Positions 8,861 through 61,050 of a stretch of DNA of 64,000 nucleotides are shown here, in pieces. Source of the stretch: Pseudomonadota bacterium (GTDB lineage Bacteria; Myxococcota; JACRCW01; JAFGSX01); the NCBI GenBank assembly GCA_043821645.1, contig JBDRCO010000134.1, forward strand, positions 60,170 through 124,169, given 5' to 3'. How positions within the stretch are numbered: position 1 is the stretch's first letter; each line of letters opens with the position of its first letter. Both the position numbers and the translations under genes were made by a program. The notes below the pieces were generated by a model. That model was not told where the DNA came from. It saw only the letters and a list, made by a program, of their open reading frames with translations, and ran no database searches.

Positions 8861-10153
8861 TCAGGGCCTGGCGGTCAGGGCGCGCTCGACCGCATCCTCG
8901 AACACCGCCAGGGGCTTGGCGCCGAAGATCACCTCATCGTTGATGACGAACGAGGGCGTGCCACGGAGTCCGGCAGCCCGCGCCTGCTCCTGGTGGCGCG
9001 CCAGCATGGCGCCGACCTCGGGACCCGCGGCATCGCGGCGCAGCCTCTCGACGTCGAGCCCCAGGCTCGCGGCGCGCCCGAGGACACTGGCGTCGTCGAG
9101 GGCGTCCTGGTGGGCGAACAGATCATCGTGAAGATCGAAGAAGCGCCCCTGAAGGTGCGCAGCCAGGGCCCAGCGCGCCGCGCTCGTGGCATGGGTGTGA
9201 AAGGGTAGGGGGTTCATCATCAGGCACACGCGCAGACGCTTGGGGTAGCGATCCTCGAGGGCGTCAACCGTCTGCTTGGCCATCCCACAGTAGGGGCACT
9301 CGAAGTCGGTGAAGGCGACCAGCGTGACCGGGGCATCCAGCGGGCCACGACAGGGATCCTCGCCGGCGACCGTCACTCCGCCCACCACCCGGGTCCGGCC
9401 GGGATCGGCGCTCTGGCCCTGGTGCATCGCCTGCTGTAGCGCCTGGTACACCAGCGGTCTTGACACACCGGCGGCGAGAGCCAGGTCCGCGTCGCGCAGG
9501 GCCAGGCTGAAGGCCTGCTCGAAATCCTCGAAGGGGCGCATGCCCACCACGCGGTGGCCATTGAAGAAGAAGGTCGGCGTTCCCTTGACCCCGAGCGCCA
9601 CGGCCTGCTCCTCGTCCCTGTCCACCGCCGCCAGCACGTCGTCACTCAGGCGATCGCGATCGAAGCGCTCGACGTCGACTCCCGCGTGCCGGGCATGCTG
9701 CTGCAGGTCCTCCGCGCCGAGGGCATGCTGGTGCGCAAAGGCCTTGTCGTGAAAGGGCCAGAACCGACCCTGGCGCTGCGCCGCCACGGCGGCCTCGGCG
9801 GCATCCCGGGCGAAGAAGTGCAGGGGCAGCGGTCGGTGCTTGAAGCACACGCGGAGCTCGCCGGGGTGCTGCTGCTCGAGGGTGTACAGGGTCTCCTGGG
9901 CGCGGGCGCAGTGGCTGCATTCGAAGTCCGAGAACTCGACCACCGTGACCCTCGCATCGACAGCACCGCGGCAGGGTGCCTCACCGAGTTCCACGGCGCG
10001 TCGTTCAGGATCTGCTGGCAGCTGCAGTGGCCGCGGAGCAGAGAGGGTCGCGGGCGTCGGCGAGGCGGACTCGGGAGTGGTCGCGCAGGCCAGGGCGATC
10101 CAGGGCAGGAGCCCGCTCGCCCAGACCAGCGTTCGTCGGAGGCGGGGCATCAC
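8861..10153 (-). CDS. Lipoprotein with two tandem DsbA/thioredoxin_4 domains
   Basis: AGGAG before GTG/ATG 10153/10150; lipobox-like IALAC; FSDFECSHC...GTPTFF and FTDFECPYC...GTPSFV. Confidence 0.88.
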   Translation of the reverse strand: MMPRLRRTLVWASGLLPWIALACATTPESASPTPATLSAPRPLQLPADPERRAVELGEAPCRGAVDARVTVVEFSDFECSHCARAQETLYTLEQQHPGELRVCFKHRPLPLHFFARDAAEAAVAAQRQGRFWPFHDKAFAHQHALGAEDLQQHARHAGVDVERFDRDRLSDDVLAAVDRDEEQAVALGVKGTPTFFFNGHRVVGMRPFEDFEQAFSLALRDADLALAAGVSRPLVYQALQQAMHQGQSADPGRTRVVGGVTVAGEDPCRGPLDAPVTLVAFTDFECPYCGMAKQTVDALEDRYPKRLRVCLMMNPLPFHTHATSAARWALAAHLQGRFFDLHDDLFAHQDALDDASVLGRAASLGLDVERLRRDAAGPEVGAMLARHQEQARAAGLRGTPSFVINDEVIFGAKPLAVFEDAVERALTARP

Positions 10154-10244
10154 GGGAACTCCTCTTATGAGGTGGTGGACGGGGCACCACAGCCGGGCTG
10201 AGCGCTCTGCTGGGCTCGCCCGACCACGATCGCGCAGCACAGGA

Positions 10245-11966
10245 TCAGGGGCAGGCGTCGAGGCCAAACACGGTGTTGACACGCCCTGCGGTGGGGGCGC
10301 CCCGGGAATGGCACCAGTTGCTGTCGAGATCCGGCGCGTCCGGGTTCAGGCGCTCGGCCGACACGCCCTCGACGAAGTTGTGGCTCTGGTTGTAAAGGCC
10401 CGCGGGTGCGCTGTAGCTGGTGACCAGGGGCGCCGCGGGATCATCGTCGGCACCCTGAAACAGGCCAATGGCCTTGCGCGTACTCTCGCTGTTCTCGATC
10501 CCGGACAGCAGGGTCGTGCGTGAGGTGCTCTCGTCGGTGAGCAGCAACGCCGCCTGGGGCACACCCAGGCTCACGGCGTCAAAACGATCACGTGCTCCCA
10601 CCACCGCGTAGTTGCCGGGAGCCAGGGTGGTGGGGCCTCCGCTCGCCATGGGTGCCAGATTCATGGAGGCCGAGCCGTCGAGCTTGCGTAGGCTGAAGGC
10701 CGCGAGGTCGTAGCTCTCGCTCTCCGAGGCGTTGAAGATCTCGATGAACTCGTAGTAGGGCTCCGACTCGCCCGCCGGGCCTGGCATGGGGTTGGGATAG
10801 ACCTCGTTGAGCACGAGCCGGGGCAGGCGCTGCGTGGTCAGCGGGTAAGGACCATTGATCAGTGGCGGGTTTGCGTAGGCGTCCAGGGACTCCACCGCGT
10901 AGTAGTAGGTGCGGCCGTTGCTCCCTCCGAGATCGAGGCCGTCCACCACCACCACGTGCGCACAGCGCCGGGCGGCGCCCGAACCTTCGCAGCGCGAGGC
11001 CGGGACACCCACCACGCGTCGGGTCATGGCGCTGGCCGAATCACCGATGCGAACCACCGAGGTCGAGGGCTCATCGGTCTCCCAGCGAATGTCCGCGCTG
11101 TCCTCTGAGGCCACGGCGAGTGGTCCGCTGGTCAGCCGCGGAGGCGACAGGTCGGGCTGGGGCAAGGCTTGCAGGCCGCGGGAGTAGGCGACCAGGGGGA
11201 CCCCATCCTCGTCGGTGATCGCACTGGTGGCGCGGAGTGTGTAAAGCGCGGCCGGGCACAAGGTGTAGCAGGCGCCACCGAGGTCCCCCAGGCGCAGGGT
11301 GGCCCGGGTTCGCTCGGCGTTCAGTTCGACGGCCTGTATCTCGGGTGTGGTGCCCGCGCCGTCCGCGACCAGGTTCAAGGACTGGTGGTTCACGCCGTAC
11401 ACGGGCTGGTCGAACTCGACCACGAGGGTGCGCAAGTTGGGCGGCACCTCTGCCGGGTTGCCACCGGGCAGGTCGGTGCTCACGACCTGGGGCGCACCGT
11501 CGTCGGTGACGAAGTCGTAGCGGAAGTGACTGGCCAGTCCGTCGTAGCCGACCAGCGGGTTGTTGTTCTCGTCGCTGACCTTCTCGCTGATGACCAGGGT
11601 CAGCTCGGTCGAGGGGGGCATGGGGTCGACTGGTGTCAGGCGCACGGTGGTGCTCCCGTCGGTGACGGCGAGGGTCAGCTCGAGGTGAGCCCGCGACAGG
11701 GGCGGATTGTTGAGATCGGAGATGAAGCTGTCGGTGACGCTGCTGGTCTCGGCGATGACGAGGTAGTCCGTGGTCAGGCGCAGCTTGGACATCGGCTCGC
11801 TGAAGCGGACCTCGAGGCTGTCGGTGGTGCGCACGGCGCGCGCGCCCGGCGATACCCCCACGACCCGCGGCGGAATGGCGTCTCCCGCGTCGATGTTGGT
11901 GTCGGGCAGACAGGCGCCGACCAGGAGGCCGGGCGTCACGAGCAAGACGGCGAATGCGGATCGCAT
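10245..11966 (-). CDS. Lipoprotein with Big_5 Ig-like domains, FN3/PAP-N-like domain and C-terminal lamin-tail domain
   Basis: Lipobox LVGAC; PPRVVGVSP...VRFSEPM and PQVVSTD...VEFDQPV Ig-like repeats; IRWETDEPSTSVV; LVLNEVYPNP...EFIEIFN...PTAGRVN lamin-tail motifs. Confidence 0.75.
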   Translation of the reverse strand: MRSAFAVLLVTPGLLVGACLPDTNIDAGDAIPPRVVGVSPGARAVRTTDSLEVRFSEPMSKLRLTTDYLVIAETSSVTDSFISDLNNPPLSRAHLELTLAVTDGSTTVRLTPVDPMPPSTELTLVISEKVSDENNNPLVGYDGLASHFRYDFVTDDGAPQVVSTDLPGGNPAEVPPNLRTLVVEFDQPVYGVNHQSLNLVADGAGTTPEIQAVELNAERTRATLRLGDLGGACYTLCPAALYTLRATSAITDEDGVPLVAYSRGLQALPQPDLSPPRLTSGPLAVASEDSADIRWETDEPSTSVVRIGDSASAMTRRVVGVPASRCEGSGAARRCAHVVVVDGLDLGGSNGRTYYYAVESLDAYANPPLINGPYPLTTQRLPRLVLNEVYPNPMPGPAGESEPYYEFIEIFNASESESYDLAAFSLRKLDGSASMNLAPMASGGPTTLAPGNYAVVGARDRFDAVSLGVPQAALLLTDESTSRTTLLSGIENSESTRKAIGLFQGADDDPAAPLVTSYSAPAGLYNQSHNFVEGVSAERLNPDAPDLDSNWCHSRGAPTAGRVNTVFGLDACP

Positions 11967-11985: not shown

Positions 11986-12843
11986 TCAGTAGGGGTCGCG
12001 GCCTATCGACTTGAGCCGGCTGGAGAACTCTCCTCCGGTCAGGGCGTCGATGTCCGCGGTCAGCTCCTGCAGCCGGAGCTCCTTGCGCACGCGGTCGGCC
12101 ATCTCGGTCGGCGGGGCGAGGTCGACCTCGATCTGCAGGCGCCGCCGCTCGAAGTAGCGCCGGGTGACCTCGTCCAGCACGTCGTCACGGTAGCGTTGCA
12201 GGCGCAGCGCCTCGCGGTTGACCTTGGGCTCCTCGGGATCGAACACGGCCCGGTCCAGGTCCCAGCGTGCACGCAGGCGCATCTGCCAGTTGTCGTACTT
12301 GTACTTGGCAAAGCGATCGGGTTGGCCCACCTCCTCGAACACGCGCTCGGTGCTGTCCCAGTCCTTGACCAGGGCAGCCTCGAACTGTGGCGCGAAGGCA
12401 CGGTTGGCGGCCCGGGCGCGCCAGCCGTCGATGCGGTCCGGGTGTGCACGCGCATAGGCCACCGCGGAATCCTGCACCTCGCGGATGCTGGGTTCGCCCG
12501 CGTAGGGCTTGAGGGCGGCACGCACCTGGGAGCTGGTGACGGTGCTGCCCGGTCGCACGACCAGGGCCTGATCCTTGCCCAGCGTGATCTGACCCCGGAG
12601 CTTGGCCACCGTGCCCGCCGAGATCCCCTGCACACGTGTCAGCTCCTCGACGCTCTCGAAGGGCCCGTTGCGGTCGCGGTCGCTGACGATCTCCTCGGCC
12701 AGCTTAGGGCCGATGCCGGGGAGGGACTGCAGCTCGGACGCTCCGGCAGTGTTGATGTCGATGGTCTGGCCCCAGGCCAGGGCACTGACCAGCGTCGCGG
12801 CAAGCAGGGCGCATGGTCGAGAGCAGGTTCGGAATCGTGCCAT
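11986..12843 (-). CDS. Exported ComEA-type helix-hairpin-helix DNA-binding domain fused to a single OEP/TolC-like repeat
   Basis: GAGGAG before ATG 12843; signal peptide; IDINTAGASELQSLPGIGPKLAEEIVSDRDRNGPFESVEELTRVQGIS is canonical ComEA; C-terminal EPSIREVQ...RAFAPQF...RARWDLD...VTRRYFERRR...IDALTGG. Confidence 0.8.
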   Translation of the reverse strand: MARFRTCSRPCALLAATLVSALAWGQTIDINTAGASELQSLPGIGPKLAEEIVSDRDRNGPFESVEELTRVQGISAGTVAKLRGQITLGKDQALVVRPGSTVTSSQVRAALKPYAGEPSIREVQDSAVAYARAHPDRIDGWRARAANRAFAPQFEAALVKDWDSTERVFEEVGQPDRFAKYKYDNWQMRLRARWDLDRAVFDPEEPKVNREALRLQRYRDDVLDEVTRRYFERRRLQIEVDLAPPTEMADRVRKELRLQELTADIDALTGGEFSSRLKSIGRDPY

Positions 12844-12881
12844 CTCGTTCTCCTCGAGCGGACACCTGCCGGGCGTCCGGT

Positions 12882-14840
12882 TCAATCCACCTTGATGTTG
12901 CGGCTCCGCGCAGGGTGCGCATCATCGTCGTGCGCGTCGTCGACACGCGTTGTTCCGTCGTAGGAGACCCCGAGCACCGTCTCGGCGCCGCGTGCCCGAG
13001 CCTCCCGGGAGAAGTAGCCACCGGTGCTGGCATCGAGCTGGGCGGTGTACTCGAGCAGCTTGAGCAGACGGCGGGCCTCGATGGCGGTCTCGCGCGATCG
13101 CCGGGCCACGACCTGGGCCAGGGACCGCTGGCGCGCGGTGTAGGCGCGCATCACCCGCGATGTGATCTTGTCCCGGCGGCTGGCCAGCCTGCCCTCCTCG
13201 CGGCTCACGGCGGTCGCCTGTGAAGGAGCCAGGATGGCGTCGAAGTCCCAGCTCAGGGTTGCCCAGGCGGAGGTCACGACGCGCGAGCGCTGGTACATGG
13301 GCTCCTGGTCGTAGATATCGCCGTAAAAGTCCGCGAACTCATCCAGCACCTCGAGGCCCTGGGTCCCGCCGAGGCCCCAGCCTATACCGTCGTCCCGCAC
13401 ACGCAGATGGCGAGCCACGACATCGACGCGGGGCAGGGCGGCGGCCAGCTGTGCCCGCTGCAGCTCCCACTGTGCGCGCCGGGCCTCGACGCGATCGTAG
13501 GTGATGGCAGCCTGGACCACCTCATCGAGGGTTGGCTCGCGCTTGACCACGTCCTCATAGCGACGGCGGATCAGCTTGATGCCGCTCTGACCCGAGCCCT
13601 TGATGCGCCGGAACAGTCCGCGATCGGTGGCAGCCCAGAGCACCTGGGTGGCACGGCCATCCAGCGACACGTCCACCGCACCGTGCACGTCGCCTTCTGC
13701 CAGCAGGTTGGTGACCTCCCCGCGCTTGGGATGAAGCAGGTACAGGCCGCGCCGGGCCGCGATGGCCACCGGACCGCTGGGCTGGGCGCTCACCACCACG
13801 CGTTCGATCTGATCGTGCTCCCCCAGATCGACGGGTGTGAACAGGCTCTCTCCCATGCCAGCGCGCAGCAGGTCTCGGCCGGTGCCAACGTACAGGTCGT
13901 GGTGGTGCGGGTCGTACGCCACGCTGGACACGGGCTGGTCGCGATCACCTCCTGCCAGCAACTGCAGCAGGTAGGTGCGCCCGGCGTCATCGCTCCGGTA
14001 GAGGCCCTGTTCCGTGCCAACCAGGACGGTGCTGGTGGCGTCCGGGAGCATGAGCACGCACAGGGCGGCCTCGTGACCGGGGTGACCTGGAAGCGCTGTC
14101 CAGCTGAAGCCGCCATCGAGGCTCTCGAGGGCGCCTGCGCGGGTCGCCACGATCAGGTGCGTCGGGATGGCGGGGTTGATCGCAACATCGCGCACGTCGA
14201 GAGCGCCGCGGCCATGGGGCAGGGGCACGGCGTCGAAATGATCTCCACGATCGATCGAACGGAACAGGCCCATGGGCGTGGCTGCGTAGACCACATCGGG
14301 GTCGCCCGGGGCGAAGCGCAGGGTGCGCACACCAGGCAAGGTGCGTGCGAAGACCGGCTTCTCCTCTCCGGAGAAGGATCCGTCTGGCAGGTTGTCGTCT
14401 TCCTCGAGGTCGAGTTCGCCCGCGGGCAGACCATCGTCCAGCTCGACCTCTTCTTCCTCCTCTTCTGCCACCTCGTCGCTGTCCAGATCCTCGCGATCCA
14501 CGGTCTCGTCGCCGGTGCGAGAGGCCTCGTCGTCCGCCAGGTCCTGCAGCTGGTCCTCGAGCCTGTCCCGGTCCGCTCCGCTCAGCTGGTCGCCGGGAAG
14601 ACCGAAGCGAAAACTCAACACGATGCGCCAGGTCTCGCCGCCATCATCGGTCTTGAAGACCCGCCCATCGACACCGGCCAGGGCCAGGTCCCCGTCGCGG
14701 GGATGCACGGCCACGGCGGTGATGCGGTCGGTCTCGAGACCGTAGGTGAGGTCTGCCAGGTGATAGGCGTCTGCCGCGCCGAGGGACAGCACCCACAGCC
14801 AGGCTCCCAGTACCGCCCCCATGCGCCACAGCCGTCTCAT
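12882..14840 (-). CDS. Exported BNR/Asp-box beta-propeller protein with acidic insert and C-terminal single OEP/TolC-like repeat
   Basis: Signal peptide; Asp-boxes KTDDGGETW, RSIDRGDHF, ESLDGGFSW, RSDDAGRTY; C-terminal EPTLDEVVQAA...AAALPRV...LSWDFD...VMRAYTARQR...LDASTGG, paralogous to the neighbour's C-terminus. Confidence 0.72.
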   Translation of the reverse strand: MRRLWRMGAVLGAWLWVLSLGAADAYHLADLTYGLETDRITAVAVHPRDGDLALAGVDGRVFKTDDGGETWRIVLSFRFGLPGDQLSGADRDRLEDQLQDLADDEASRTGDETVDREDLDSDEVAEEEEEEVELDDGLPAGELDLEEDDNLPDGSFSGEEKPVFARTLPGVRTLRFAPGDPDVVYAATPMGLFRSIDRGDHFDAVPLPHGRGALDVRDVAINPAIPTHLIVATRAGALESLDGGFSWTALPGHPGHEAALCVLMLPDATSTVLVGTEQGLYRSDDAGRTYLLQLLAGGDRDQPVSSVAYDPHHHDLYVGTGRDLLRAGMGESLFTPVDLGEHDQIERVVVSAQPSGPVAIAARRGLYLLHPKRGEVTNLLAEGDVHGAVDVSLDGRATQVLWAATDRGLFRRIKGSGQSGIKLIRRRYEDVVKREPTLDEVVQAAITYDRVEARRAQWELQRAQLAAALPRVDVVARHLRVRDDGIGWGLGGTQGLEVLDEFADFYGDIYDQEPMYQRSRVVTSAWATLSWDFDAILAPSQATAVSREEGRLASRRDKITSRVMRAYTARQRSLAQVVARRSRETAIEARRLLKLLEYTAQLDASTGGYFSREARARGAETVLGVSYDGTTRVDDAHDDDAHPARSRNIKVD

Positions 14841-14986
14841 CGGTCCTCTGTATTCGCGTCGTCGACGAACTCGCGCTGCTTGAGCGTACGGGAGCCGAGG
14901 TCCCGACGTCAACTGGCGCAAGGGTCTCCCACGATTCTGGCCTTGAGAGAGGTGAATGGACGTCGCGGCCGCGCTACAGTGATTCC

Positions 14987-16198
14987 ATGCGTCTCCCTTT
15001 CACTCTGGTCGCGCTTGTGTCGGCAGCCTGTGCGCCACCGCCACAGCTGGTGGCCGTGGAGCCCACCCAGGGACCCACCGCGCAGGAGGTGGCCCTTGTG
15101 GTGACCGGGCACGACCTGGTGCCTGGCCTGACGCTCGAACTCGTGGGTCAAGCCTTTCGATTCGCGCTCCGCGTCGACGAGGTGGCTGCGGACCAGGTGC
15201 GGGCCGTCATCCCTGCGGGAGTGGACGCTGCCCGCTACGACCTGGTGGTCCGCAATCCAGACGGCGCAGACGACAGGCTGGCCGCGGCCTACCAGGCGGT
15301 GGACGCGGTGCTCACGGTGGTGGTGCTGGATGTGGGGCAGGGCGCGTCTCTGCTCGCGGTGGGCAGCGACGGCAGCAGCCTGCTGGTGGATGGGGGCAAG
15401 GAGGGACGCGCCGCCTCGGTGTTGCGCCCGGCATTGGCGCGCTACAGCCAGGGCCAACTCGATACGGTGGTGGTCACCCATTTTGACGTGGACCACATGG
15501 GTGGCATCGCTGAGTGGATGGAGGGGCCGGATGGCCTGGCCGGGACGGACGACGATCCCGCGCTCCCGGGCGGGCTGTGGGACAACGGCGGAGCAGCGGA
15601 CTGCACCACCGACATCTGCCGGCGCTACCGCGTGGCCGCCGCCGGTCGCGCGCACACCATCGTGCCGGGACAGACCTTCGCCCTTGGCGCGGCCTCGGCG
15701 CGCTGCGTGATCGTGGGTGGCCACATCGAGGGTGGGCCACAGCTCAGCCCGGCCGATGACAATGCGTCCAGCGTCGGGCTGCTGTTCGAGATGGCTGGGA
15801 AAAGAGTGCTGGTGAGTGGCGACCTGCCTGGCGGTGGCCTGGGAAGCCAGGACTTCGAGACGCCCCTGGCGCAGGTCCTCGGGCCCATCGACGTGTGGCA
15901 CCTCAACCACCACGGATCCGCAACAGCCACGGCCCAGAGCGCGCTCGACCTGCATGCCCCACGGCTCGCCCTGATCCCCGTCGACACCGATAACGCGTAC
16001 TGCCACCCCGCCCAGGAGGTGGTGGACAGGCTGCAGGTGCGCGCGCTGCCGGTGTACCTCACGGGGGCTGGCACGGTCACACCCTCGACGGCCTGTCCTC
16101 AGACCACGCAGCTCGGACCGCAGATGAAGGTTGTCGGGGAGATCCGGCTCGAGATCGACGCCGCGGGCGCGCTGACGGTCAACGGCGCGCCGCTCTGA
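14987..16198 (+). CDS. Lipoprotein: IPT/TIG-like domain plus ComEC/Rec2-type metallo-beta-lactamase (putative nuclease)
   Basis: Lipobox SAAC; LDVGQG, LVDGG, THFDVDHMGG, NASSV, SGDL, HHGS, NAYCHPAQEV are the ComEC MBL-domain motifs; no Competence membrane domain. Confidence 0.82.
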   Translation: MRLPFTLVALVSAACAPPPQLVAVEPTQGPTAQEVALVVTGHDLVPGLTLELVGQAFRFALRVDEVAADQVRAVIPAGVDAARYDLVVRNPDGADDRLAAAYQAVDAVLTVVVLDVGQGASLLAVGSDGSSLLVDGGKEGRAASVLRPALARYSQGQLDTVVVTHFDVDHMGGIAEWMEGPDGLAGTDDDPALPGGLWDNGGAADCTTDICRRYRVAAAGRAHTIVPGQTFALGAASARCVIVGGHIEGGPQLSPADDNASSVGLLFEMAGKRVLVSGDLPGGGLGSQDFETPLAQVLGPIDVWHLNHHGSATATAQSALDLHAPRLALIPVDTDNAYCHPAQEVVDRLQVRALPVYLTGAGTVTPSTACPQTTQLGPQMKVVGEIRLEIDAAGALTVNGAPL

Positions 16199-18887
16199 AC
16201 CGTCGGGAGCGGTGCCAGGTACCCACCAGGAGGATCAGGAGCCATAGCCCGGATGCGGGGCGGCTCGCGGTGCAGTCACAACCCTCGGCGGCAGCGGGAT
16301 CCAGGGCGGCCCCGGGTTCTGCGAGCGGACGATTCCCCTTGGCAGTGGGCCAGCGCGGAGGGATGGCGCCCTGGCTCCAGTGTGCGACATTGCCTGCCTC
16401 GTCCAGGACCTCGACCTCGATGTGGTGAGTGCTCGGTGGAGCGCCGTCGAGCCTGATGGGATCGAGTCCAGTCTGGGAATGAACCCTCGTCCCATCCACC
16501 CGGACCTGGAGCCGCAGATCCTCGTCGGGGGTGACCCCGTCGTGGGCGACGACCTGAAGCAGGCGGCCCGCCCTGTCGAGGCTCACCTGCAGCGTCGGGG
16601 CCACGGGATCCACGATCACCTCGAGCACGGCCGGGCTGAGATCCAGGGTCGACGGTGCGCCCACGCGGCGTCCGCGCACCTCGATGCGGTGCCGGCCCAT
16701 CAGCTGCAGCAGGGGGTCGGTCACGTGCAGCACCTGCCCGCGGTGGAAGGGGCGCCAGAAGCCCCCGTCAACGCGGTGGCTGAACTCCAGGTCATCCCCG
16801 TCGTGATCGCGCGCACTCACGTCGAGTTCGAGCAGTGGCCCCTGCACGCCCTGCGGGCTGGAGACGTGAAAGGCCTCGGCCGCGGGTTGTTCGAAGCGGC
16901 GCACGCCGACCACGGTGTCGACGCTGTAGCGCAGGGGTGAGCCCACCTGCGCCGGGTCAAAGCGAAGGTTCGAGAAGATGCCCATGAACTCGAACACCGG
17001 GTTCCCCAGCGCGTCGACGACGGGAGTGCTGCCGTCCAGGCGCTGCTGCACTCCGCGAAGGGTCAGACCCTCGAGGGCGAAGCCCGCCAGGTCGGGCAGC
17101 GCGATGGTCTGGGTAAGGTCGGGGGCGAACTGGCCCAGCATGGCGCCAATGAGCGCGGGCACCGCGGCCTCGATGTCCTCGGGCGGATCGGTGAGCAACT
17201 CGCTGTTGAGCACCTGCACGTCCTGTATCCAGTCCTCGACGCCGCTGACCAGCACCAGCATGTTGCCCTGGCCGTCGTCGTCGAGGCCGATGCCGATGCG
17301 CAGGTTGGCGCGCATGGTCATGAAGCGCAGATAGCGGTCGTCGACCAGACCGTACAGGTCCAGGTCCAGGTCGTGGGCGTGCAAGGTCAACAGCGGCTTG
17401 TCGAGGATGGTGCGGTTGGGGTCCGAGGGATCCACGGCGGTGGTCCCCAGGCCGATGTCCGCGACGATGGGCGCGCGCGGCAAGATCTCGATGAGGGCGG
17501 GCTTGGCACCGCCCCGGGTGATGTTGCCCAGGGAGCTGGCCAGCAGCCCCAGGGCGCCGGTGTTGATGTACGATGACAGGCCCGAATCGATGCGCTGGCA
17601 AAAGGCGCCGGACTGCACCGCGCCGCGCGCCACCTGGTCGAGCATGCGGTCTGCCACCGCGATGCCGACCATGAAGGGCGTGTCTGCGCCGGTCTCGGGG
17701 TGCGGTACGCTGTTGCCGAAGTTCAGGCGCGGGGGCACCGGGAGCGGTGTATCCATGGGGGGGACGCACAGGCTGGCCTGCACATCCGTGCCGCCGCGCA
17801 TGCCCAGTTCGATACCCTCGGCCACGACCTCGGCGTAGCCTCCGGCAGCTATCGACACACCCACGGCTTCGGTGGCCTGGCCTGCGAAGGCGCCGAGCAT
17901 GCCGGCGAGATCCATCCCGCCCTCGACGCCCATGAGCGTGGGCACATAGCGACCGCCGGAGGCAAAGTGGCAGCGCTTGTCTCCGTCACAGGTGGTGGCC
18001 ACGGCGGCTGTGCACTGGGCCGGTGGATCGCAGCTCTCGACCATGGCGTCGGTCATGGCGCCGGTGAGTGAGCTGTTGAGCTGATCGCGCAGGCTGTCCT
18101 CGAACAGGGGGAACAGCAGGGGCATGAGCAGCTCGGCCGCACCGCAGCCCAGCCAGCTCCCGATGCCGCCCGAACTCTTGATCTCGAGGTCGCTTTCCGA
18201 AAAGGGGATATCGGGATCGCCAAACTCCAGCTCCAGGCGCTGCAGCGGGTTGTCCGTTCGCATGTTCAGGTCCATCGCCATAGCGCGCTGCTTGCGCAGG
18301 ATCTGCACGTCGCAGTCCGGAGCCGGGCTGAGGCAGCACCACGGACGACCCCAGCTGCAGTCGTCCTCGAGCACCAGGGGGAGCCAGGTCGAGTAGGCCT
18401 CGGTCTGCACGGTCACATCGATGGTCGCTGGCGCCGTGGGAGCCAGGGCCACCGAAAGCAGGTGCACGTAGGCCCGGCACTGATCGCTCGACGGGTTCTC
18501 GCAGATCGCGACTTTTTTCCAGCAGCCGCTGTCGGTGACACTGGACGGAACCTTGAAGCCGAGCACCGGCTGGACCACGCCGTTCTGCTCGCAGTGGCTG
18601 CCGTCGATGCAGCTCATGCCGCTGGGACAGGGAAGATAATCGGGACTGCTCGAATCGCAGGGGAAGGACGCGAAGCTCTGGATGATGGCCGGCAGGTTGC
18701 TCTCCAGGAAGGCCACGCCCGAGGGGGTGAGCCTGACCTGAGCCGCGCCATTGAACTTGCGCGATTCGGGGAAGGGCTGATCCAGGGGAGCCAGGCAGCC
18801 CCCGCAATCGGTGGCGCCACAGGCGCCGAGGCCAAGCGCGAGGGTCAGCAGACCCAGGCGCCGGACGAGTCCAGCTTTCACCGTCAT
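16179..18887 (-). CDS. MYXO-CTERM surface protein with putative BPI/LBP (TULIP)-like lipid-binding domains
   Basis: N-terminal signal with Cys motif (GACGATDCGGC); AAQVRLTPSGVAFL and MVGIAVADRMLDQV...QSGAF resemble BPI N- and C-domain motifs; C-terminal GCDC...LWLLILLVG...RRFRAARR sorting signal. Confidence 0.62.
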   Translation of the reverse strand: MTVKAGLVRRLGLLTLALGLGACGATDCGGCLAPLDQPFPESRKFNGAAQVRLTPSGVAFLESNLPAIIQSFASFPCDSSSPDYLPCPSGMSCIDGSHCEQNGVVQPVLGFKVPSSVTDSGCWKKVAICENPSSDQCRAYVHLLSVALAPTAPATIDVTVQTEAYSTWLPLVLEDDCSWGRPWCCLSPAPDCDVQILRKQRAMAMDLNMRTDNPLQRLELEFGDPDIPFSESDLEIKSSGGIGSWLGCGAAELLMPLLFPLFEDSLRDQLNSSLTGAMTDAMVESCDPPAQCTAAVATTCDGDKRCHFASGGRYVPTLMGVEGGMDLAGMLGAFAGQATEAVGVSIAAGGYAEVVAEGIELGMRGGTDVQASLCVPPMDTPLPVPPRLNFGNSVPHPETGADTPFMVGIAVADRMLDQVARGAVQSGAFCQRIDSGLSSYINTGALGLLASSLGNITRGGAKPALIEILPRAPIVADIGLGTTAVDPSDPNRTILDKPLLTLHAHDLDLDLYGLVDDRYLRFMTMRANLRIGIGLDDDGQGNMLVLVSGVEDWIQDVQVLNSELLTDPPEDIEAAVPALIGAMLGQFAPDLTQTIALPDLAGFALEGLTLRGVQQRLDGSTPVVDALGNPVFEFMGIFSNLRFDPAQVGSPLRYSVDTVVGVRRFEQPAAEAFHVSSPQGVQGPLLELDVSARDHDGDDLEFSHRVDGGFWRPFHRGQVLHVTDPLLQLMGRHRIEVRGRRVGAPSTLDLSPAVLEVIVDPVAPTLQVSLDRAGRLLQVVAHDGVTPDEDLRLQVRVDGTRVHSQTGLDPIRLDGAPPSTHHIEVEVLDEAGNVAHWSQGAIPPRWPTAKGNRPLAEPGAALDPAAAEGCDCTASRPASGLWLLILLVGTWHRSRRFRAARR

Positions 18888-19017
18888 GCGCCACTCCAAG
18901 GCAGCGGACGTCGACTCCCGAGCACCGGCGGCACACGCAGGTGCCGCGAGCGCCAGAACCCGCCCGTCCTCACATCACCCAGAAGGTACCACAGCCGAGC
19001 GCCGGGCGCTCCATGGC

Positions 19018-21396
19018 TCATGGGAACGCGGGCATGTTGGGGTAGGTGCTGGTCTGAACGAGGTCCAGGCCGCCGGGATAGGCATAGCTGACGTAGTCGT
19101 CATAGCCATAGTTGAAGATGCCGAAGCGCTCGCCCCGGGCCTGCGGGTTGGCGGTGAGCACCGAGCTCATGGTGTGGGCGCCCCGGGCCAGGCGCAGGGT
19201 CATGCGCATGTAGCTGGTGCCCGCAATGGCCACCGGGGCCTCGGCCAGGCAGTTGGTATTGGCTCCGGCCACGCAGGCGATGCCAGGCACCGTGGCGGCA
19301 CCGTCGAGGAGGATGCTGCTGTTGGTGTTGTAGACCACGGTGACGTAGTCCACGTAGTAGGTGTCCGGCGTCAAGAACGAGTAGTCGTAGCGGTACTGCT
19401 CGACGGGGATGAGCTGTGACAGCGCGGGATCTCCGGCGTGGGAGCCGTAGGAGTTGAGACCCGTGGCCTCCTGACCGGCGAAGATCGCGCCGACCAGGAT
19501 GGGCGCCTGGGCCATGATGCGAAAGCTGTCCTTGGAGCCGAACTCGCAGTAGCCACCCTCGTTGAGGATGAAGGACCCGTCGCTGGCCATGGGGCAGGTC
19601 GGGGTGCTGGCGGCGTGCGCTGCGGCCACATCACCGGGCTTGGGGAGCACCTGGATGCGGTTGGTCGCCGCCGAGGAGACGAAGCGATAGTACATGCGCT
19701 CCTGGTTGGTGGCGCCGGTGGCCGTGTTGCGCATCTTGGGCATGGCGCCGATGTACTCGGTGCCCCAGGTCTCGATGGGCAGGAGCATCTCCTCCATGTG
19801 GTCGCAGGCCTCTTTCTTTTCCGGGATGTAGGCACACTCGTGCAGGCCGAACACACCGATGGGCTTGTCCGCGGCGACCAGCACGCCCGTGGGATCCGGT
19901 GCCGAGGTCTTGTACGCGGTCATCAGCTGGAACACCTGGTTGGCGTTGAGGGTCAGGCGCAGCTCCTCGGGGTAGCTGCTGTCGTTGCCGAAGTTGGGCA
20001 GGCCGTTCTCGATCTTGAAGTCGTTGGACGCCTGGCCCGGACGCTTGCGCACGGCGATGCGGGTGCCGTCCTCGGCCGCGACCACGGCGAGACCGGCGGG
20101 AGCGGATGCCGCTTCATTCTGCTGCATGCCGAGGAAACCTGCCGACCAGGTACGGTGGGGGCCCGAGACCACGAAGTAGGCCTGGCGCCACGCCGTGGTG
20201 GGGATCAGCAGTGACGCGTCATTGGTGTAGGCGAAGTTGCAGCAGATGGGATTGAACAGGTAGGCACTCACCGGCAGCGACGCCACCAGGTGATAGCTCT
20301 TGTCGAACACGCCGGAGCCGTGGGCGATGTCGTTGGGCAGCAGCAAGGTGGCGATGCCACCGGCGGGCAAGGTGAGGTCCGCCGCACTCTGGCTGTCGAC
20401 GTTGGTCGCATTGCTTCCCACCGAGATCTTGGAGTGGACGTCCTGCGGTGTTCCGGATCCTCCTGGCGCGCGGTCGGTGACGTGGCGCATGGGGGGGAGC
20501 GTCAGGGCGTTGCCGGAGGGACCGCTAAGGGTCAGGTGCACATCCTGGTCACTGGTGTTGGCCACCACGACGGCTGCGGGGAAGGGGTCCGAGCCGGCCC
20601 CGAGATCGCTGTCGATGTTGTTGTCGGTGATGGCGAAGCGGTAGTCGCAGGCGATGTAGCTCTTGGTCACGGCGGCGAGGTCGCAGGCCGTGGCGCACAG
20701 CGCGCCGTCGGCGTGGGTGCTGTCGGTGACGCAGACCGCGCCCTGAGCTGTGTTGCAGTCCACGGGGTTGCTCGCAGCCGTGCCATAGGTGCCGCAGTCC
20801 GCGATGGTGTCGCTGTCGACGCAGAACTTGCGGCCCTCGGTGCAGACCACCTGCTGGCATGCGTCGCCCACGCAGACCTGGTCGGTGCGGCACTGGTCGT
20901 CGAAGATGGCGGTACCCGCGGGCGAGCAGCGGCGCACCTGGCGCGTGCCCTCGCTGATGCACTCGGTGACCGCGCCGGGCGTGCAGATCTGGGGCACGCA
21001 CTCGCCGACGCCGGTGCAACCCGTGCCTGAGCCGCACGGATCGGAGCTGTAGTCCAGACCGGTCGCTGAGCACAGCTTGCGCTCACCGTCGCCACCACAG
21101 AAGTGGCTCAAAGGTACGCAGATGGTCGGCGCGCAGGTGCCGGACATGCAGGCGGTGCCACCCGGGCAGGGCTCGTCCATCTTGGCCGTGCCGTTGCCGT
21201 TGCAGGTCGACAGGGTGCTGGCGTCGAGGCACGAGGTCGCGAAGGGGGTGCAGATCTGGTCCTTGCACTCACCGCCGAGACAGACCTGGGTGTCGCTGCA
21301 CTTGCCTCCGCAGGCGTCCACCGGTTGTGGTGGCTCTGTCGGCTGGCAGGCCAGCAGCGCTGCACAAACAGTCAGGCAACCCATCCACCTCATCAT
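19018..21396 (-). CDS. Cys-rich lipoprotein with IgGFc-binding N-terminal-type domain
   Basis: GGAGG before ATG 21396; lipobox LLAC; Cys-rich repeats; KSYIACDY, TNDASLLIPTTAW, ADKPIGVF, CDHMEEMLLPIETWG, GDPAL, SYAYPGG. Confidence 0.82.
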   Translation of the reverse strand: MMRWMGCLTVCAALLACQPTEPPQPVDACGGKCSDTQVCLGGECKDQICTPFATSCLDASTLSTCNGNGTAKMDEPCPGGTACMSGTCAPTICVPLSHFCGGDGERKLCSATGLDYSSDPCGSGTGCTGVGECVPQICTPGAVTECISEGTRQVRRCSPAGTAIFDDQCRTDQVCVGDACQQVVCTEGRKFCVDSDTIADCGTYGTAASNPVDCNTAQGAVCVTDSTHADGALCATACDLAAVTKSYIACDYRFAITDNNIDSDLGAGSDPFPAAVVVANTSDQDVHLTLSGPSGNALTLPPMRHVTDRAPGGSGTPQDVHSKISVGSNATNVDSQSAADLTLPAGGIATLLLPNDIAHGSGVFDKSYHLVASLPVSAYLFNPICCNFAYTNDASLLIPTTAWRQAYFVVSGPHRTWSAGFLGMQQNEAASAPAGLAVVAAEDGTRIAVRKRPGQASNDFKIENGLPNFGNDSSYPEELRLTLNANQVFQLMTAYKTSAPDPTGVLVAADKPIGVFGLHECAYIPEKKEACDHMEEMLLPIETWGTEYIGAMPKMRNTATGATNQERMYYRFVSSAATNRIQVLPKPGDVAAAHAASTPTCPMASDGSFILNEGGYCEFGSKDSFRIMAQAPILVGAIFAGQEATGLNSYGSHAGDPALSQLIPVEQYRYDYSFLTPDTYYVDYVTVVYNTNSSILLDGAATVPGIACVAGANTNCLAEAPVAIAGTSYMRMTLRLARGAHTMSSVLTANPQARGERFGIFNYGYDDYVSYAYPGGLDLVQTSTYPNMPAFP

Positions 21397-21484
21397 GATC
21401 GACCTCCACGCATGTCCGGGGCGCGAGCCTAGCACAGGGCTTGCGGGTGCGTCTGCAAGGCTCGGGGGTGGGGTGGGAGCAGGG

Positions 21485-23210
21485 CTAAAAGCGCACACAG
21501 CCTTCCATGGTCGCGCTCGCGCTGGCCCCGTAGCCCAGGTCGCCCTTGCCACTGAGTGCGCCCTTGACCATGTCGACCACGTCCATGCCGGCCTGGTAGG
21601 CGTCCATGGGCGAGTCGGTCTCGAACTCGCCACCTTCCCAGCGCCCGGTGTTGGGGTTGTAGCGGTTCTCGATGTCGTAGCCGATGCCACCAGGAACATC
21701 GATGCCGCCCGACGAGCTGATGCCCGTGCAGCGCGACACGCGGAACTCGCCGTCGACCCCGTAACCCATGATCTCCAGGCCGCCCTCGGCCTTGACCGAG
21801 AAGTCGTTGCTCTCGCGGATGTCGCCAAAGGGGTCGAAGTCGAACCCATTGCCAACCCCCACACCCAGCTCGGCGCAGGCGGACAGGCCGTCCTCGTCCA
21901 CGCATAGCTCGCCACCGCCGCCGACCACGGCAAAGAAGCTCCCGCCGACGCAGAACAAGCCCGTGGGGTCGGCGTGGCCCACGGGGTCGCTGCCTGCGTA
22001 GGCGTAGAGGTGGTACTGGCCGCCGTTGAACAACTTGAGATCGGTGGAGGTGAAGCGGCCGGCCTCGGGGTCGTAGTCGCGCAGGCCCAGGCGCGTGAGG
22101 CCGGTCAGCGTGTCCTCGAGGCCGCCGCCGAAGCCCAGCACCACGTCCAGGGCCGGAGCGCTGTCCGCGAGCAGGCGGCCAAAGCTGTCGCGGTCCACGC
22201 GCTTGACGAGCGCGCCGCTTGCGTCGAACACCGCGCGCACCGTGCCGACCTGGTCCGTGGCCAGGTAGTAGCGGGTGGCGCCGCGATCCATGGCCAGGGC
22301 AGCGCTCATGTCATCGTAGGTGTAGATCTGCAGGGTGTCGTCGGCCAGGCGCACGGCCAGCGGTCGCCACCAGGCGCCCGGCGTACCGTACAGCACCTGG
22401 ACATCACCCGCAGCGTCGTGCCGGGAGACCCGGCGGCCCGCGCCGTCGTAACCGTAGTCCACGCTGTCGCTGCCCACCGTGGCCTCGAGCAGCTCACCGC
22501 GCACCCCGTACACGAAGCTGTCGCTGCCGCGCAGGGCCAGCTGCCCGTCGTCGTCGAGGGTGTAGTCCGCGCCTCCGACCATGGCGATGCGATCGCGCAG
22601 GTCATAGCTGCTGGTCTCGGCGCTGGCGCCGTCGTAGGCGCGCGAGGTGCGATTGCCGCGCGCGTCGTAGGTGTAGGTCTCGACCACGACGCTGTCGCGC
22701 GTCACCTGGACCAGGTGATCGAACTCGTCGTAGGCGTAGCTCCAGGTTGTGGTCACGCCGTCGAGCAGCTCGATCCGCTCGACCACGCGGTCCAGCAGGT
22801 CCAGCGTCAGGTCCAGCTGGTAGCGCACCACGCTGCCCACGCTCAGGCTCTTGTGCACCAGCCGGCCGTACTCGTCGCGCCCCAGCACCAGCTCGGCCGC
22901 GGCGTCGTGCATGGCCGAGGCTGAACCCAGGGGCCCATCCCGCGCGATGGTCCAGTCGCCGTAACCGACGACGTGCAGCGCCGCATCGTAGGCCAGGCCC
23001 CAGTGCGCGCTGTCGCTGCCGCTGGTCAGATCCATGGCGCTGGGAAGCATGAGCGTGTCGTAGCTCAGGTCGAGGCGACCCTGGGCGGCGCCGCGGCTCT
23101 CGATGGCCGTTGGCAGCCCGCCATCGCTGAAGTGCACCAGCGTGTGCGAGACGTCGCTGACCAGCGAGCGGAAGCTGATGGAGGAGGTCCCTCCGCAGCA
23201 CGCTGCATCA
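21485..23210 (-). CDS. C-terminal part of teneurin-like RHS/YD protein (RHS core plus 156-aa C-terminal domain), separated from the upstream part by a +1 frameshift
   Basis: YD repeats (YAYDEFDHL, YTYDARGNR, YGYDGAGRR), TDQVGTVR, RDYDPEAGRFTSTD, LYAYAGSDPVGHADPTGL; the frame is open back to about 23210. Confidence 0.88.
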
Positions 23211-26200
23211 CCCCTCGAGGCGCTGCTCGGTTTCGGGGCTGTCCAGGCCCGTCAGGTTGCCGCTGGCATCGCGCAGATACGAGATCACCCGGCCCGAGGG
23301 CAGGGTAACCGTGTGCAGCCGACCGCTCTGGTACTGCCGCGTCTCGCTGGCCCCCAGCGGCGCGTCGAAGCTGGCACGGCGACCCATGGGGGTGACGCCG
23401 AACTGGTAGCTCGCAGCACCGGGCAGGGTGACGCCGGTGCGGCGGCCCAGGCCGTCGTGGGCAAAGCCAACGCTGTATCCCGACGGGCTGTCGGTGATCT
23501 GGTCGACCTGGCCAGCCTCATTGCGGCCGAGGCTGCGCGTGCGCCCTCCCGGCCCGGAGATGCTGCTGAGCTGCCCGCCAAGGTCGTAGCTGCGCGCGTG
23601 GACCTTGTCGCCCCAGGTGCTGCTCTGGCGCTGGCCGCTCTGCTCGCGCGCGAACAGCAGGGTCGCCAGGCCGTCGATGTCCACGCTCTCGGGCCGGCTG
23701 TCCAGGCCTCGCACGATCTGCGTCGCCCGGCCGTCGGCCGCGGTGAAGGTCAGGGTGCGCGTGGCCGCGACATACTCCGACGTCGAGGTCGAGGTCCCGC
23801 TCTGATAGGTCTCGCTGCGGCTGAGCAGCGCGCCGGTGCCGGGATCCACGACCGCCGTGCGCTGGGTGGTCAGGGTCATGCTGCGGCCGCCCGGCGTGGT
23901 CACGGTGAGCTGGCGCGGGAACAGCGCGTGCGCGCCGAGCAGGGGATCCGCGTCCAGCAGCAGGTCCACGCGGCTGCCGTCGGCCTCGCTGCGCTGCTCT
24001 TCGAGGCCCTGGGTCAGCACACTCAGCACGAGCTGCCCGTCGTCCAGGCGGGTGTAGCGTCGGCCCTCGTCGGCCAGGAACTCGATGCGGTGCTCGGTCT
24101 GACGCGGGCCCGGGCCGCTGATTGTCAGCAGTTTTTCGGCGGCGTCCTCGACCAGCGTGTAGCTGACGGAGCTGCCATCGGGCAGGGTCTGCGCGATGAG
24201 TGCGCCCCTGCCGTCGTAGGCGTAGCCGTGCACACTGCCGTCGGGGTAGATGGCCTGCTGCACCAGCCCGCCGTCGTCATAGCTGAACGCATAGCTGCGA
24301 CTTCCGGGCAGTGTGATCTGCGACAGGTAGCCGTTGGGGTCGAGCGCCAGCTCGGTGCGCTGGCCGCCTGGTGCAACAAAAGCCGTGGCGTTGCCTGCGC
24401 CGTCGCGCTCGATGTCAGTCCTCCCGCCGTCCATGTCGTCGATGTGGACCAGCCGTCCCTCGCTGTCGTAACTGAAACTGAGCAGGGTCTGACCACTGAT
24501 CGCGTCGACGGTGCGCAGGTGGCGACCGCGGGCCTCGTCGAACACGTGATAGCGCGAACCGTCCGCGGATGGAGCGAGTGCCTCGTTGCTGCCAATCGCT
24601 GGCCCGCCGGGAACAGACTTCATGGCCGAGGGATCAGCCTGCAAACGGCGCACGACGCCGAAACCGATGTTGTACACGGCGCCGTCGGGCCCGGTGGTCA
24701 CGTTGTCGGGGCTTTGGAAGGTGACGAAGCGGGCCAGGGTGCCCTCGCTCGATGTCCCCGTGCCGTTGTTTCCCGAGAATACCGAGACCACTCCGCCCTT
24801 GAGCCTGCTGATGGCGTGGCCGGTGCCGTTGCCACCGTTGCCCTGGGTGAAGTAGATGGTCCCGTCGGGAGCGCAGGCGATAGCTTGGCTCAGCAGCAGT
24901 TGCGCCGAGAGCGCCGGAGTGGGGGTGGCCGTGAAACCGCTGCCCTGTCCGCCCGCGATGGTGTCGATGCTCCCGTCGGGCCTCAGACGCAGCATCCGGT
25001 AACCGGTGTCGTGGCCAGTGATGATGCTACCGTCCGGGCATACCGCCATTCCCCAGGCTCCGGTCGTGAGCCCGGTGCCCTTTGACCGAGTCGCTGCGGC
25101 GACGAAGGTCGAGGTGCCGTTTCCGGCGAAGTGGTGCAGGATGCCGTCTTTGTCGATCGAGAACATCTTGCGGTTCCCACCATCTTTGTAGATCAGCGTG
25201 CCTCCCGGGGTGATGGCCCACTTCGCCACGTTGATGTTCGCGCCATCCGCGACCGCGCCGTCGGCGACCGCATGGCCGCCAAACATGTTCTGCTTGAACA
25301 CCCGCCAGACCTTGCCCTGCGGGTCGAGCCGGTAGGCGTCGGATAGAATGCGGTAGAAGACGCTGCCGTCCGGGGCAGCCAGCAGGTGCGCTCCCTGGGT
25401 ACCCCCATTCAGCGTGTGCGCGTCCATTCCTTGCACGAAATTGGCGTACGAGATGTCTCCCTCGCCGCCGAGGATTTGCATCTCACCGTTGGCATCGATC
25501 TCGACGAACACGTACCGGGTCCCTCGGATGCCGAAGCTCTTGGAGACCATGGCAACGACCTTGCCATCCGGCCTCACCACGACGTTGGCCGACTTGAAGC
25601 CGCCGCAATACTCGTTGGGCCATTCACCGCAGGTGAAGTGGCGGACCCGCTGCTTGCCACCGGGCACCACGGGACGGGTCGTACCATGGCCCTCGTACAG
25701 GATGCCGCCCTCGGGCGCGAAGTGGTGCTGAACGTCCAGGTTCCACCCCCCCAGCCCCAGCGGTCGCTCGTCGGAGATGCCGTCGATGGCGACAGGAAAG
25801 GACGTGCGCAGGCCGGGCTGCTTCCACTTCGCGACCATTCCCTGACCTACGGGTGTGACCACCTCCCGGATCACGACGGAGTTGGCACTGAAGCTGTACT
25901 CCGTGTCCGTGGCGGGTTCCGCGAAGCTGGGGCTGTACCAGAAGGTCTTTGTCACGACAGCCGTCACCTGCCCGCTGACTGCGCGACCGTAAGCGTCATG
26001 CCCGTCCCAGGGCACCTCCACGACCAGCCCTGGCTGAGGTGCGTACAGGCCGTGCCATGTCCAGCCCAGGATATCGACGTCGATCTCGGCCTCGATGAGG
26101 TCCGGGTGCAGGTCGGCAGGGAAGACAGGGACGACCAGCGGGGTCCTGCGACCTGGCACACGGTCGGTGACGTAGCTCAGCGCGAACGGCGTGCCGGCGA

Positions 26201-29985: not shown

Positions 29986-30074
29986 GGCGGCTGCCGATGG
30001 CATTGCTCCAGGTTGGCCTCTGACGACCAGGCCCCCACCGGGCAGACATTCCCTTCGCAAGGTTGCTCCGAGCT

Positions 30075-30103
30075 AAAAAAAAGCCGGCCTCGAAAGACCG
30101 GCT
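30075..30103 (-). terminator. Rho-independent terminator of tRNA-Cys
   Basis: Minus strand AGCCGGTCT-TTCG-AGGCCGGCT followed by a T run, 14 nt after the tRNA. Confidence 0.88.
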
Positions 30104-30117
30104 ACAGGAATCTGACA

Positions 30118-30189
30118 AGGCGCCGACCGGATTCGAACCGGTGCATAATGGTTTTGCAGACCACTCCCTTACCACTTGGGTACGGCGCC
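30118..30189 (-). tRNA. tRNA-Cys (GCA), CCA not encoded
   Basis: GGCGCCGTACCCAAGTGGTAAGGGAGTGGTCTGCAAAACCATTATGCACCGGTTCGAATCCGGTCGGCGCCT: acceptor stem GGCGCCG/CGGCGCC, anticodon loop CTGCAAA, TTCGAAT T-loop, U discriminator. Confidence 0.97.
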
Positions 30190-30200
30190 AGAGCCTGCAA

Positions 30201-30230
30201 CTTGTAGCGCACCTGCGGCAACACTGGCAA
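30201..30230 (-). promoter_or_regulatory. Possible sigma70 promoter of tRNA-Cys
   Basis: TTGCCA-N18-TACAAG ending 11 nt before the tRNA 5' end. Confidence 0.4.
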
Positions 30231-30249
30231 GAGCTTCAGCGAGGGCTTT

Positions 30250-60511: not shown

Positions 60512-60524
60512 CGGAGCCCGCGCC

Positions 60525-60869
60525 ATGAGCTTGCCCACCCCGCTTCCCGACGAGGATGCGCAGCTTCTGCGCGGGATTGCCGTGCTCAATGCCCGCGCCA
60601 TCGGGGTGGCCCTGGGTACCGTGTGCGGCCTGGGGATGCTGGTGGCGACCCTCTGGCTCGTCGTCAAGGGAGGTGATCCCGTGGGGCCGCACCTGGCCCT
60701 TTTGTCGCAGTTCTTCATCGGCTACCACGTCAGCCTCGGCGGCAGTGTGGTGGGCGCGCTGTACGGCTTCGCTGTGGGCTCCATCGCCGGGACTCTGCTG
60801 GGCTGGGTTTACAATGCTCTCTCGCTCTGGCGTGGAAGACGCAAGCGTGCGGCGAGCCGCAGGCCCTGA
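60525..60869 (+). CDS. Small two-TM membrane protein, paralogue of the C-terminal domain of the upstream oxidoreductase
   Basis: TLWLVVKGGDPVGPHLALLSQFFIGYHVS versus TLTLVVKGGERVGPTLSLLVHYLPGYSVT; GGAG upstream. Confidence 0.8.
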   Translation: MSLPTPLPDEDAQLLRGIAVLNARAIGVALGTVCGLGMLVATLWLVVKGGDPVGPHLALLSQFFIGYHVSLGGSVVGALYGFAVGSIAGTLLGWVYNALSLWRGRRKRAASRRP

Positions 60870-61050
60870 TGCCGGACCTCAAAGCTTCCCGCCCCGGTGG
60901 ATGTGTGCGCCGGGCACCTGATCCGGCATGCGCCCTCGAGTCTCATGAACGTTCTTGCGAGGCGCCAGGGTATCCCTGGGAGGTCGGGAGGGCACGTGCT
61001 GCAGTGCCGGGAGGCACGCGTTGAGCGCAAGGCGCGGTCACTCCTCCACG

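Follow-up and report, generated by a model that had tools for sequence, protein, structure and literature searches.

A 64,000-nucleotide stretch of a Myxococcota genome (assembly GCA_043821645.1, contig JBDRCO010000134.1, positions 60,170 to 124,169 of the forward strand; hereafter the window) carries two adjacent genes, called A and B here, whose protein products end in related single-repeat modules. We found that the two C-termini are paralogous, and structure prediction suggests that each resembles one repeat of the outer-membrane factors (OMFs), the protein family of TolC. The module is quite likely an OMF-repeat-like oligomerisation unit that donates a beta-hairpin to an assembly of some stoichiometry, and on balance we favour a TolC-like outer-membrane barrel in which A and B alternate as a hexamer. 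An earlier note, made from the sequence alone, had singled out positions 11986-13545, which span gene A in full and the part of gene B that encodes its C-terminal domain, as encoding paralogous half-protomers of the TolC kind. The genes and their parts are as follows.

12882-14840, minus strand: gene B, a 652-aa secreted protein with a signal peptide, a BNR/sortilin-like beta-propeller with an acidic insert, a C-terminal single-repeat module and an acidic tail.

11986-12843, minus strand: gene A, a 285-aa secreted protein with a signal peptide, a ComEA-type helix-hairpin-helix (HhH) domain, a linker and a C-terminal single-repeat module.

12987-13538, minus strand: C-terminal module of B (residues 462-645 of the translated open reading frame, P0002), from BLASTP, hhalign and alignment A4 of 14 orthologues.

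13248-13430, minus strand: extended hairpin region of B with its aromatic/acidic loop, from alignment A5 and the interface residues of the complex model (35-54 and 80-104).

11989-12495, minus strand: C-terminal module of A (residues 117-285), from the AlphaFold2 (AF2) model and alignments A3, A5 and A6.

12265-12387, minus strand: beta-hairpin of A (protein residues 153-193), from the DSSP strands of the domain model and column hydrophobicity.

12574-12768, minus strand: ComEA-like HhH domain of A (residues 26-90), from VIA-align and PDB hmmsearch matches to ComEA.

A and B are consecutive open reading frames (ORFs; B at 12882-14921, A at 11986-12885). The probable start of A is the ATG at 12843, which gives a 285-aa protein identical to database protein P0003, while that of B is the ATG at 14840, which gives a 652-aa protein equal to database protein P0123; from these probable starts, the spacer between B and A is 38 nt. 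Read directly off the sequence, both N-termini are hydrophobic, signal-peptide-like segments with an Ala-rich site at the end. BLASTP of the translated ORFs aligned residues 131-295 of A (P0001) with residues 462-645 of B (P0002), with 57/186 positions identical (31%), 23 gap columns and an E value of 6e-11 for a single comparison. All five pairs of segments that had been quoted in support of paralogy lie within this alignment. Because profile-profile comparison of the two domain families with hhalign gave a probability of 99.3% (E 1.5e-20 over 168 columns), the similarity reflects homology rather than chance. In a six-frame search, the assembly (7.07 Mb, 94.7% complete) yielded only two copies of the module, and they are the adjacent ones.

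Outside the module, the two proteins differ. The propeller of B was recognised through weak matches to Sortilin-Vps10/PSII_BNR (Pfam) and NF045728 (NCBIfam), each below its cut-off. A low-complexity Asp/Glu-rich insert of about 90 residues lies in its first propeller blades (window positions 14400-14600, P0002 residues about 100-190) and varies among six close orthologues. A word-indexed protein search with the domain of B matched 6 proteins, and B orthologues were instead drawn from related loci. Within the module, the hairpin region of B exceeds that of A by about 20 residues in alignment A5, and its loop contains many aromatic and acidic residues (GIGWGLGG...EFADFYGDIYDQEPMY), as the earlier note had described.

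Protein A combines the module with an HhH domain that closely resembles ComEA. It matches HHH_3 in Pfam (E 3.1e-21) and passes the NCBIfam model TIGR00426 (62.1 bits, cut-off 53.1), and VIA-align superposed its HhH domain on Geobacillus ComEA (8dss_B) with Z 13.9 and a root-mean-square deviation (rmsd) of 0.9 A over 65 residues at 43% identity. Unlike ComEA, it falls short of the full-length ComEA model TIGR01259 (65.2 bits, cut-off 152.35) and carries the predicted barrel-forming C-terminal module; to our knowledge, known ComEA proteins lack such a module. In the source databases, the matched proteins are named "ComEA", "helix-hairpin-helix" or "hypothetical" and come from Myxococcota or Deltaproteobacteria metagenome-assembled genomes (MAGs).

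The shared C-terminal domain had no Pfam or NCBIfam match at E <= 0.1 in either A or B. For an AF2 model of full-length A (predicted local distance difference test score, pLDDT, 79.8), fold matches were poor owing to the dominance of the HhH domain, and a PDB sequence search with the full-length profile returned HhH matches alone; a domain-only model was therefore built from a 61-sequence alignment (A6) of A-type, B-type and stand-alone members. This 169-residue model reached a pLDDT of 95.3 and a predicted TM-score (pTM) of 0.75. It comprises a kinked helix (4-34), two 17-residue strands forming a hairpin (37-53 and 61-77), a helix of 39 residues that is the longest in the model (88-126), a further helix (132-153) and a short helix (156-163). 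A proline, P36, that is invariant in the module alignments precedes strand 1, and the module of A closes with a conserved TGG[W/E]F...PY end. The amphipathic hairpin between helices that the earlier note expected is thus present in the prediction, with hydrophobic and polar residues alternating at the strand bases; in A, the tip is variable and acidic.

Foldseek comparison of the domain model with the PDB placed OMFs (OprN, OprJ, OprM and VceC) in all of the top 11 rows. The best had an E value of 4.7e-3 and a probability of 0.97, no match reached E <= 1e-3, and TM-scores of the OMF matches on the query were 0.30-0.49. When the top 1000 Foldseek chains were re-aligned with VIA-align, 27 of the best 50 rows were OMF chains (Z 4.7-6.0, rmsd 5.0-7.0 A) with 151-165 of the 169 residues aligned, compared to at most 133 residues for the non-OMF rows among those 50. 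Nineteen of the 27 OMF rows fall on a single repeat, either residues 206-416 of the TolC type or about 40-250 of the OprM type, the latter including OprM, OprN, OprJ, CusC, MtrE, CmeC and VceC. In order, the predicted module follows the OMF repeat through helix, proline, beta-hairpin, long helix, return helix and Gly-rich end, and its size (169-184 aa) is comparable to the 187 positions of the Pfam OEP model (PF02321), which describes one repeat. The modelled topology of an OMF repeat is therefore complete, while the likeness scores weakly. A feature search of the ESM Atlas returned unnamed Myxococcota clusters; DUF3881, which appeared there with a score of 0.90, was dropped as near chance level.

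We also compared the module with OEP repeats at the sequence level. Matches to OEP occurred in 26/26 sampled genomes of the phylum, where canonical OMFs appear as paired matches in ORFs of 440-600 aa, and a six-frame scan of the present assembly found 15 repeat matches, mostly as tandem pairs within one ORF. Using hhalign, the 61-sequence domain profile aligned with 40 OEP repeats from the phylum at a score of 29.1 (P 3.4e-4) across 88 collinear columns (28-126 against 30-122), a span reaching from the proline where helix meets strand, across the two strands and into the long helix. This score exceeded 121/121 controls: the reversed OEP profile scored 17.9, and the highest values among 60 column shuffles and among 60 shuffles in 12-column blocks were 12.9 and 20.0, respectively. 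The strand bases read alike as well. In the domain, P36 is followed by hydrophobic positions 38, 40 and 42, and strand 2 has hydrophobic 72, 74 and 76 followed by W78 and L80; in the OEP repeats, P37, present in 34/40 of them, is followed by hydrophobic positions 39, 41, 43 and 45, with a second set at 60-70. The module and the OEP repeats probably share distant homology, judging from these profiles.

Three A modules (1-157) and three B modules (1-176), each with its own alignment and at most 1000 residues in all, were folded together. Three runs gave values of 0.60, 0.62 and 0.61 for the interface score ipSAE, whereas the best of 3 controls scored 0.00; the mark used for this score was reached by 116/157 solved complexes and 2/215 mismatched pairs, a calibration that fits multi-copy folds only roughly. 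At least 89% of contacts were common to the runs, and partner pLDDT was at least 64. The top contacts join strand 1 of A (38-42) to strand 2 of one copy of B (92-97), and strand 2 of A (72-79) to strand 1 of another copy of B (38-44), and in all six chains both edges of the hairpin lie within confident hetero-contacts. If every chain contacts two chains of the opposite kind, we infer a closed, six-membered alternating ring of 12 strands as the only sensible arrangement. The earlier note had reasoned that single-repeat proteins would need six copies to supply the 12 strands of a TolC barrel, and the predicted A-B ring is in keeping with that count.

On this model, each module would run up through its first helix to the conserved proline, through the long beta-hairpin, down the 39-residue helix and back up through the shorter one. 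Once exported by Sec, the A and B modules, three of each, would alternate as A-B-A-B-A-B, with six hairpins closing a 12-stranded barrel in the outer membrane above a helical tunnel about half as long as that of TolC. As in OMF repeats, the two ends of the module would be expected at the periplasmic pole, so that the HhH and propeller domains would sit beneath the outer membrane, and three ComEA-type DNA-binding domains and three beta-propellers may hang around the periplasmic mouth. The hairpin tips, acidic in A and aromatic/acidic in B, would point outward.

A number of observations weigh against this interpretation. At the level of sequence, neither A nor B has an OEP match at E <= 0.1 (cut-off 22 bits), and zero of the 15 OEP repeats in the assembly lie on the contig of the window. 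Searching the PDB with the domain profile found no OMF, only two chance matches (E 0.61 and 1.2). With shallow profiles, built from 38 or 6 sequences and set against 13 OEP repeats, hhalign detected nothing (P 0.11-0.16), and the deeper comparison reached just 37.8% probability. At the level of structure, OMF Z scores of 4.7-6.0 at rmsd 5-7 A are in the range that the tool calls common for helical models. An unbiased search of 48,161 representatives was topped by helical bundles, with the lactoferrin-binding domain of PspA (Z 6.7) and the TorS sensor (Z 6.4) ahead of TolC (Z 5.5, 162 residues aligned), and the 39-residue long helix contrasts with a much longer helical part in OMF repeats.

With all Z scores below 8 and no significant hidden Markov model match to OMFs, the TolC likeness could reflect a common arrangement, the module being an unrelated three-helix bundle with a protruding hairpin such as a secreted pore-former or the stalk of an adhesin. 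We consider this quite improbable, as OMFs alone aligned the hairpin together with all of the helices, the collinear OEP similarity stands above the full set of controls, and three landmarks occur in OEP order: the proline before strand 1, the W/L that ends strand 2 and the L-x-G(G) end.

The assembly prediction has its own weaknesses. The folded constructs omitted the C-terminal 12 residues of the A module and 8 of the B module, and the score may partly stem from the memory that the model has of TolC-like structures. In addition, 67/94 genomes that carry the family have one match at E <= 1e-5, and a single match in about two thirds of positive genomes implies that hetero-assembly is not the general rule. 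We inspected 12 single-match members, four of which are HhH fusions. A divergent propeller partner lies upstream of 2 of the 12 and was seen solely with a deeper profile, while the other 10 loci had no second copy nearby, even with the more sensitive profile. Polymers of one kind must therefore exist in the family, where stand-alone members of about 200-225 aa are also common, and A and B could likewise form separate homo-oligomers, for example A6 and B6, as two channels or anchors with no more in common than an operon. For this pair we think that unlikely. The 3+3 fold strictly alternates A and B with confident hetero-contacts on every strand edge, and B lies directly upstream of A in 14/14 related MAG loci with upstream sequence (of 17 loci). 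In a quick maximum-likelihood tree, moreover, the A modules (SH-aLRT 99) and the B modules (98) form old, separately conserved clades, as would be expected of obligate partners, with the stand-alone forms unresolved at the base. No conserved partner of the single-match members was accepted: a polA neighbour in three small genomes and HscA or chemotaxis genes elsewhere were set aside as lineage synteny.

A third set of adverse observations concerns transport. No HlyD/MFP, RND, ABC-exporter or MFS genes were found among the window neighbours, and the 66 ORFs around the 12 other members include no adaptor or pump gene; the only ABC parts there are two import-type permeases (BPD_transp_1) at one locus (L038). 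Because no pump partners were found in these neighbourhoods, although some may be encoded elsewhere, "TolC-like" refers here to architecture and not to efflux. The strand positions between the hydrophobic ones, which would line the lumen, are far more charged than in OEP repeats, and the hydrophobic stretch of strand 1 spans merely 3-4 alternating residues. Together with the varied N-terminal passengers of the family (none, HhH, propeller or LTD plus propeller, where LTD is a lamin-tail domain), which are typical of an anchor or scaffold, these features could indicate that the module is an oligomerisation or outer-membrane anchor without transport, tethering the HhH and propeller domains, or a soluble periplasmic ring. 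This too seems rather unlikely, given that the hydrophobic alternation (P-x-h-x-h-x-aromatic and h-x-h-x-h-x-W-x-L) matches that of the OEP repeats of the phylum (4 plus 5-6 positions), that any ring of six hairpins must surround a lumen, and that in stand-alone members there is no domain to anchor. A TolC-like, hetero-hexameric channel with a short tunnel is the most likely of the readings considered.

Such a channel would be a variant of the OMFs rather than a member. Beyond the repeat itself, A and B share with OMFs the alternating hydrophobic strand bases, Sec export and the predicted 12-stranded ring. TolC has an alpha-tunnel of about 100 A built from helices of about 67 residues, compared to which the 39-residue helix of the module would give a tunnel about half as long. 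The module proteins also have one repeat per chain where OMFs have two, and would assemble from six chains of two kinds instead of three; they lack a recognised equatorial domain, a Pfam OEP match and nearby adaptor or pump genes, and both A and B carry large N-terminal periplasmic passenger domains. In profile match, repeats per chain, tunnel length and pump partners they therefore depart from OMFs while being OMF-like in architecture. MspA and alpha-haemolysin-type pores, which insert one beta-hairpin per chain into a shared barrel as the module is predicted to do, have no helical tunnel and other stoichiometries, and none surfaced in the fold searches with the module.

The module belongs to a large family. 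Profile search of 1.84 billion representatives recovered 3243 clusters, counted at 50% identity, with E <= 1e-3; stricter thresholds of 1e-10 and 1e-30 left 2148 and 240 of them. Throughout the best 150 of these 3243 clusters the module was single and C-terminal; nine of the 150 rows had 2 matched stretches, the best one covering just part of the profile. Members are stand-alone proteins, HhH fusions of about 290 aa or propeller fusions of 470-750 aa. A Pfam scan of 40 members found 17 without a family, 3 with HHH_3 and 20 of the propeller type, one of which (P0218) also carries an LTD in an LTD-propeller-module fusion; no match fell on the module itself. Our survey covered the genomes and MAGs of one phylum, where the module was matched in 94/201 genomes, with one large family at 0/60. 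In three reduced genomes of another family (f10: L038, L039 and L044; 1.3-2 Mb, 46-48% GC), an HhH-module fusion adjoining polA is the sole copy found, and its retention there suggests an important role.

The earlier note had gone further, proposing that these half-protomers resemble the ancestor that preceded the TolC duplication. Passages of a published review state that OMF repeats arose via gene duplication, and every OMF that they describe is a trimer of internally duplicated protomers (PMC8277102). The predicted topology and size of one OMF repeat agree with the half-protomer part of the proposal. The ancestral part is unsupported: the family was found in genomes and MAGs of the surveyed phylum, where all 26 sampled genomes contain canonical two-repeat OMFs, and a relic and a derived, shortened form fit these data alike. 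No report of a single-repeat or half-TolC form was found in the literature outside subscription journals, and a search on ComEA and Myxococcus returned nothing relevant.

What the assembly might do is suggested by its neighbours, three of which encode putative lipoproteins with lipobox-like sequences (LVGAC, SAAC and LGAC, read from the sequence).

14987-16198, plus strand: divergent neighbour, a putative lipoprotein with a TIG domain and a metallo-beta-lactamase (MBL) fold like the ComEC C-terminal domain (Lactamase_B, E 2.7e-13).

10245-11966, minus strand: downstream neighbour, a putative lipoprotein with Big_5 (E 2.1e-14) and LTD domains.

16179-18899, minus strand: a 906-aa putative lipoprotein, conserved beside the cluster in two related loci by tblastn (L015 and L027).

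The Big_5-LTD gene follows A in 11/17 related loci, and the divergent TIG-MBL gene lies upstream in 8. The LTD match is below its cut-off (E 1.4e-6, 29.1 bits, cut-off 34.3); bacterial LTDs often accompany secreted nucleases. The MBL protein aligns with positions 556-656 of the 663 in TIGR00361 (ComEC_Rec2) at 61.3 bits, missing the cut-off of 190, and so differs from ComEC in matching the MBL part alone; the ComEC Competence channel domain (PF03772) had 0 matches in the 94.7%-complete genome. HHH_3 occurs at five loci in the genome, four besides A. The 906-aa protein had zero Pfam or NCBIfam matches, and whether it belongs to the system is uncertain. The gene immediately downstream of Big_5-LTD (8861-10282, minus strand) encodes two tandem DsbA-like thioredoxin domains and is conserved in the closest related locus (L015) alone.

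From this setting we tentatively propose that the complex captures DNA entering the periplasm, which the ComEC-like MBL lipoprotein would then break down. This role is still rather doubtful. As the genome yielded no ComEC channel domain, nutrient scavenging would be favoured over transformation. A bolder version, which we regard as unlikely, is a pilus- and secretin-independent DNA conduit through the outer membrane, in which an A3B3 mini-TolC uses its three ComEA domains to ratchet double-stranded DNA and hand it over to the MBL nuclease and LTD lipoproteins, and in which the module would represent a large single-repeat TolC-type family that builds the OMF architecture from six half-protomers.

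Elsewhere in the window, several features stand apart from this system. Two consecutive large ORFs in overlapping frames (21485-27932, minus strand; 1574 aa and 550 aa) show RHS repeats together with a YD shell of the teneurin type and a TTR-like domain. A single Rhs/YD-repeat toxin-like gene, broken by a frameshift or by faulty assembly, could account for the pair. Between the 906-aa lipoprotein gene and these RHS genes lies a gene for a 971-aa protein (19018-21933, minus strand) with an IgGFc_binding domain (E 3.9e-53), which is unusual in bacteria. A 1446-aa ORF at 30250-34590 (minus strand) has an N-terminal response-regulator receiver as its sole recognised domain, and AT skew is strong over 30001-34000 (-0.25 to -0.26) and 60001-62000 (-0.24).

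The module defines a family with thousands of sequence clusters and no curated model, and the labels "ComEA" or "helix-hairpin-helix protein" leave over half of the length of such proteins unexplained, an annotation that the present analysis corrects. If the family builds a TolC-type barrel from six single repeats, it would serve as a natural experiment on the assembly and evolution of the TolC architecture, and Myxococcota would have an additional, new class of channel in the outer membrane. Given the ComEA fusion and the conserved nuclease-like neighbours, it would also be a candidate for bringing DNA across the outer membrane without type IV pili.

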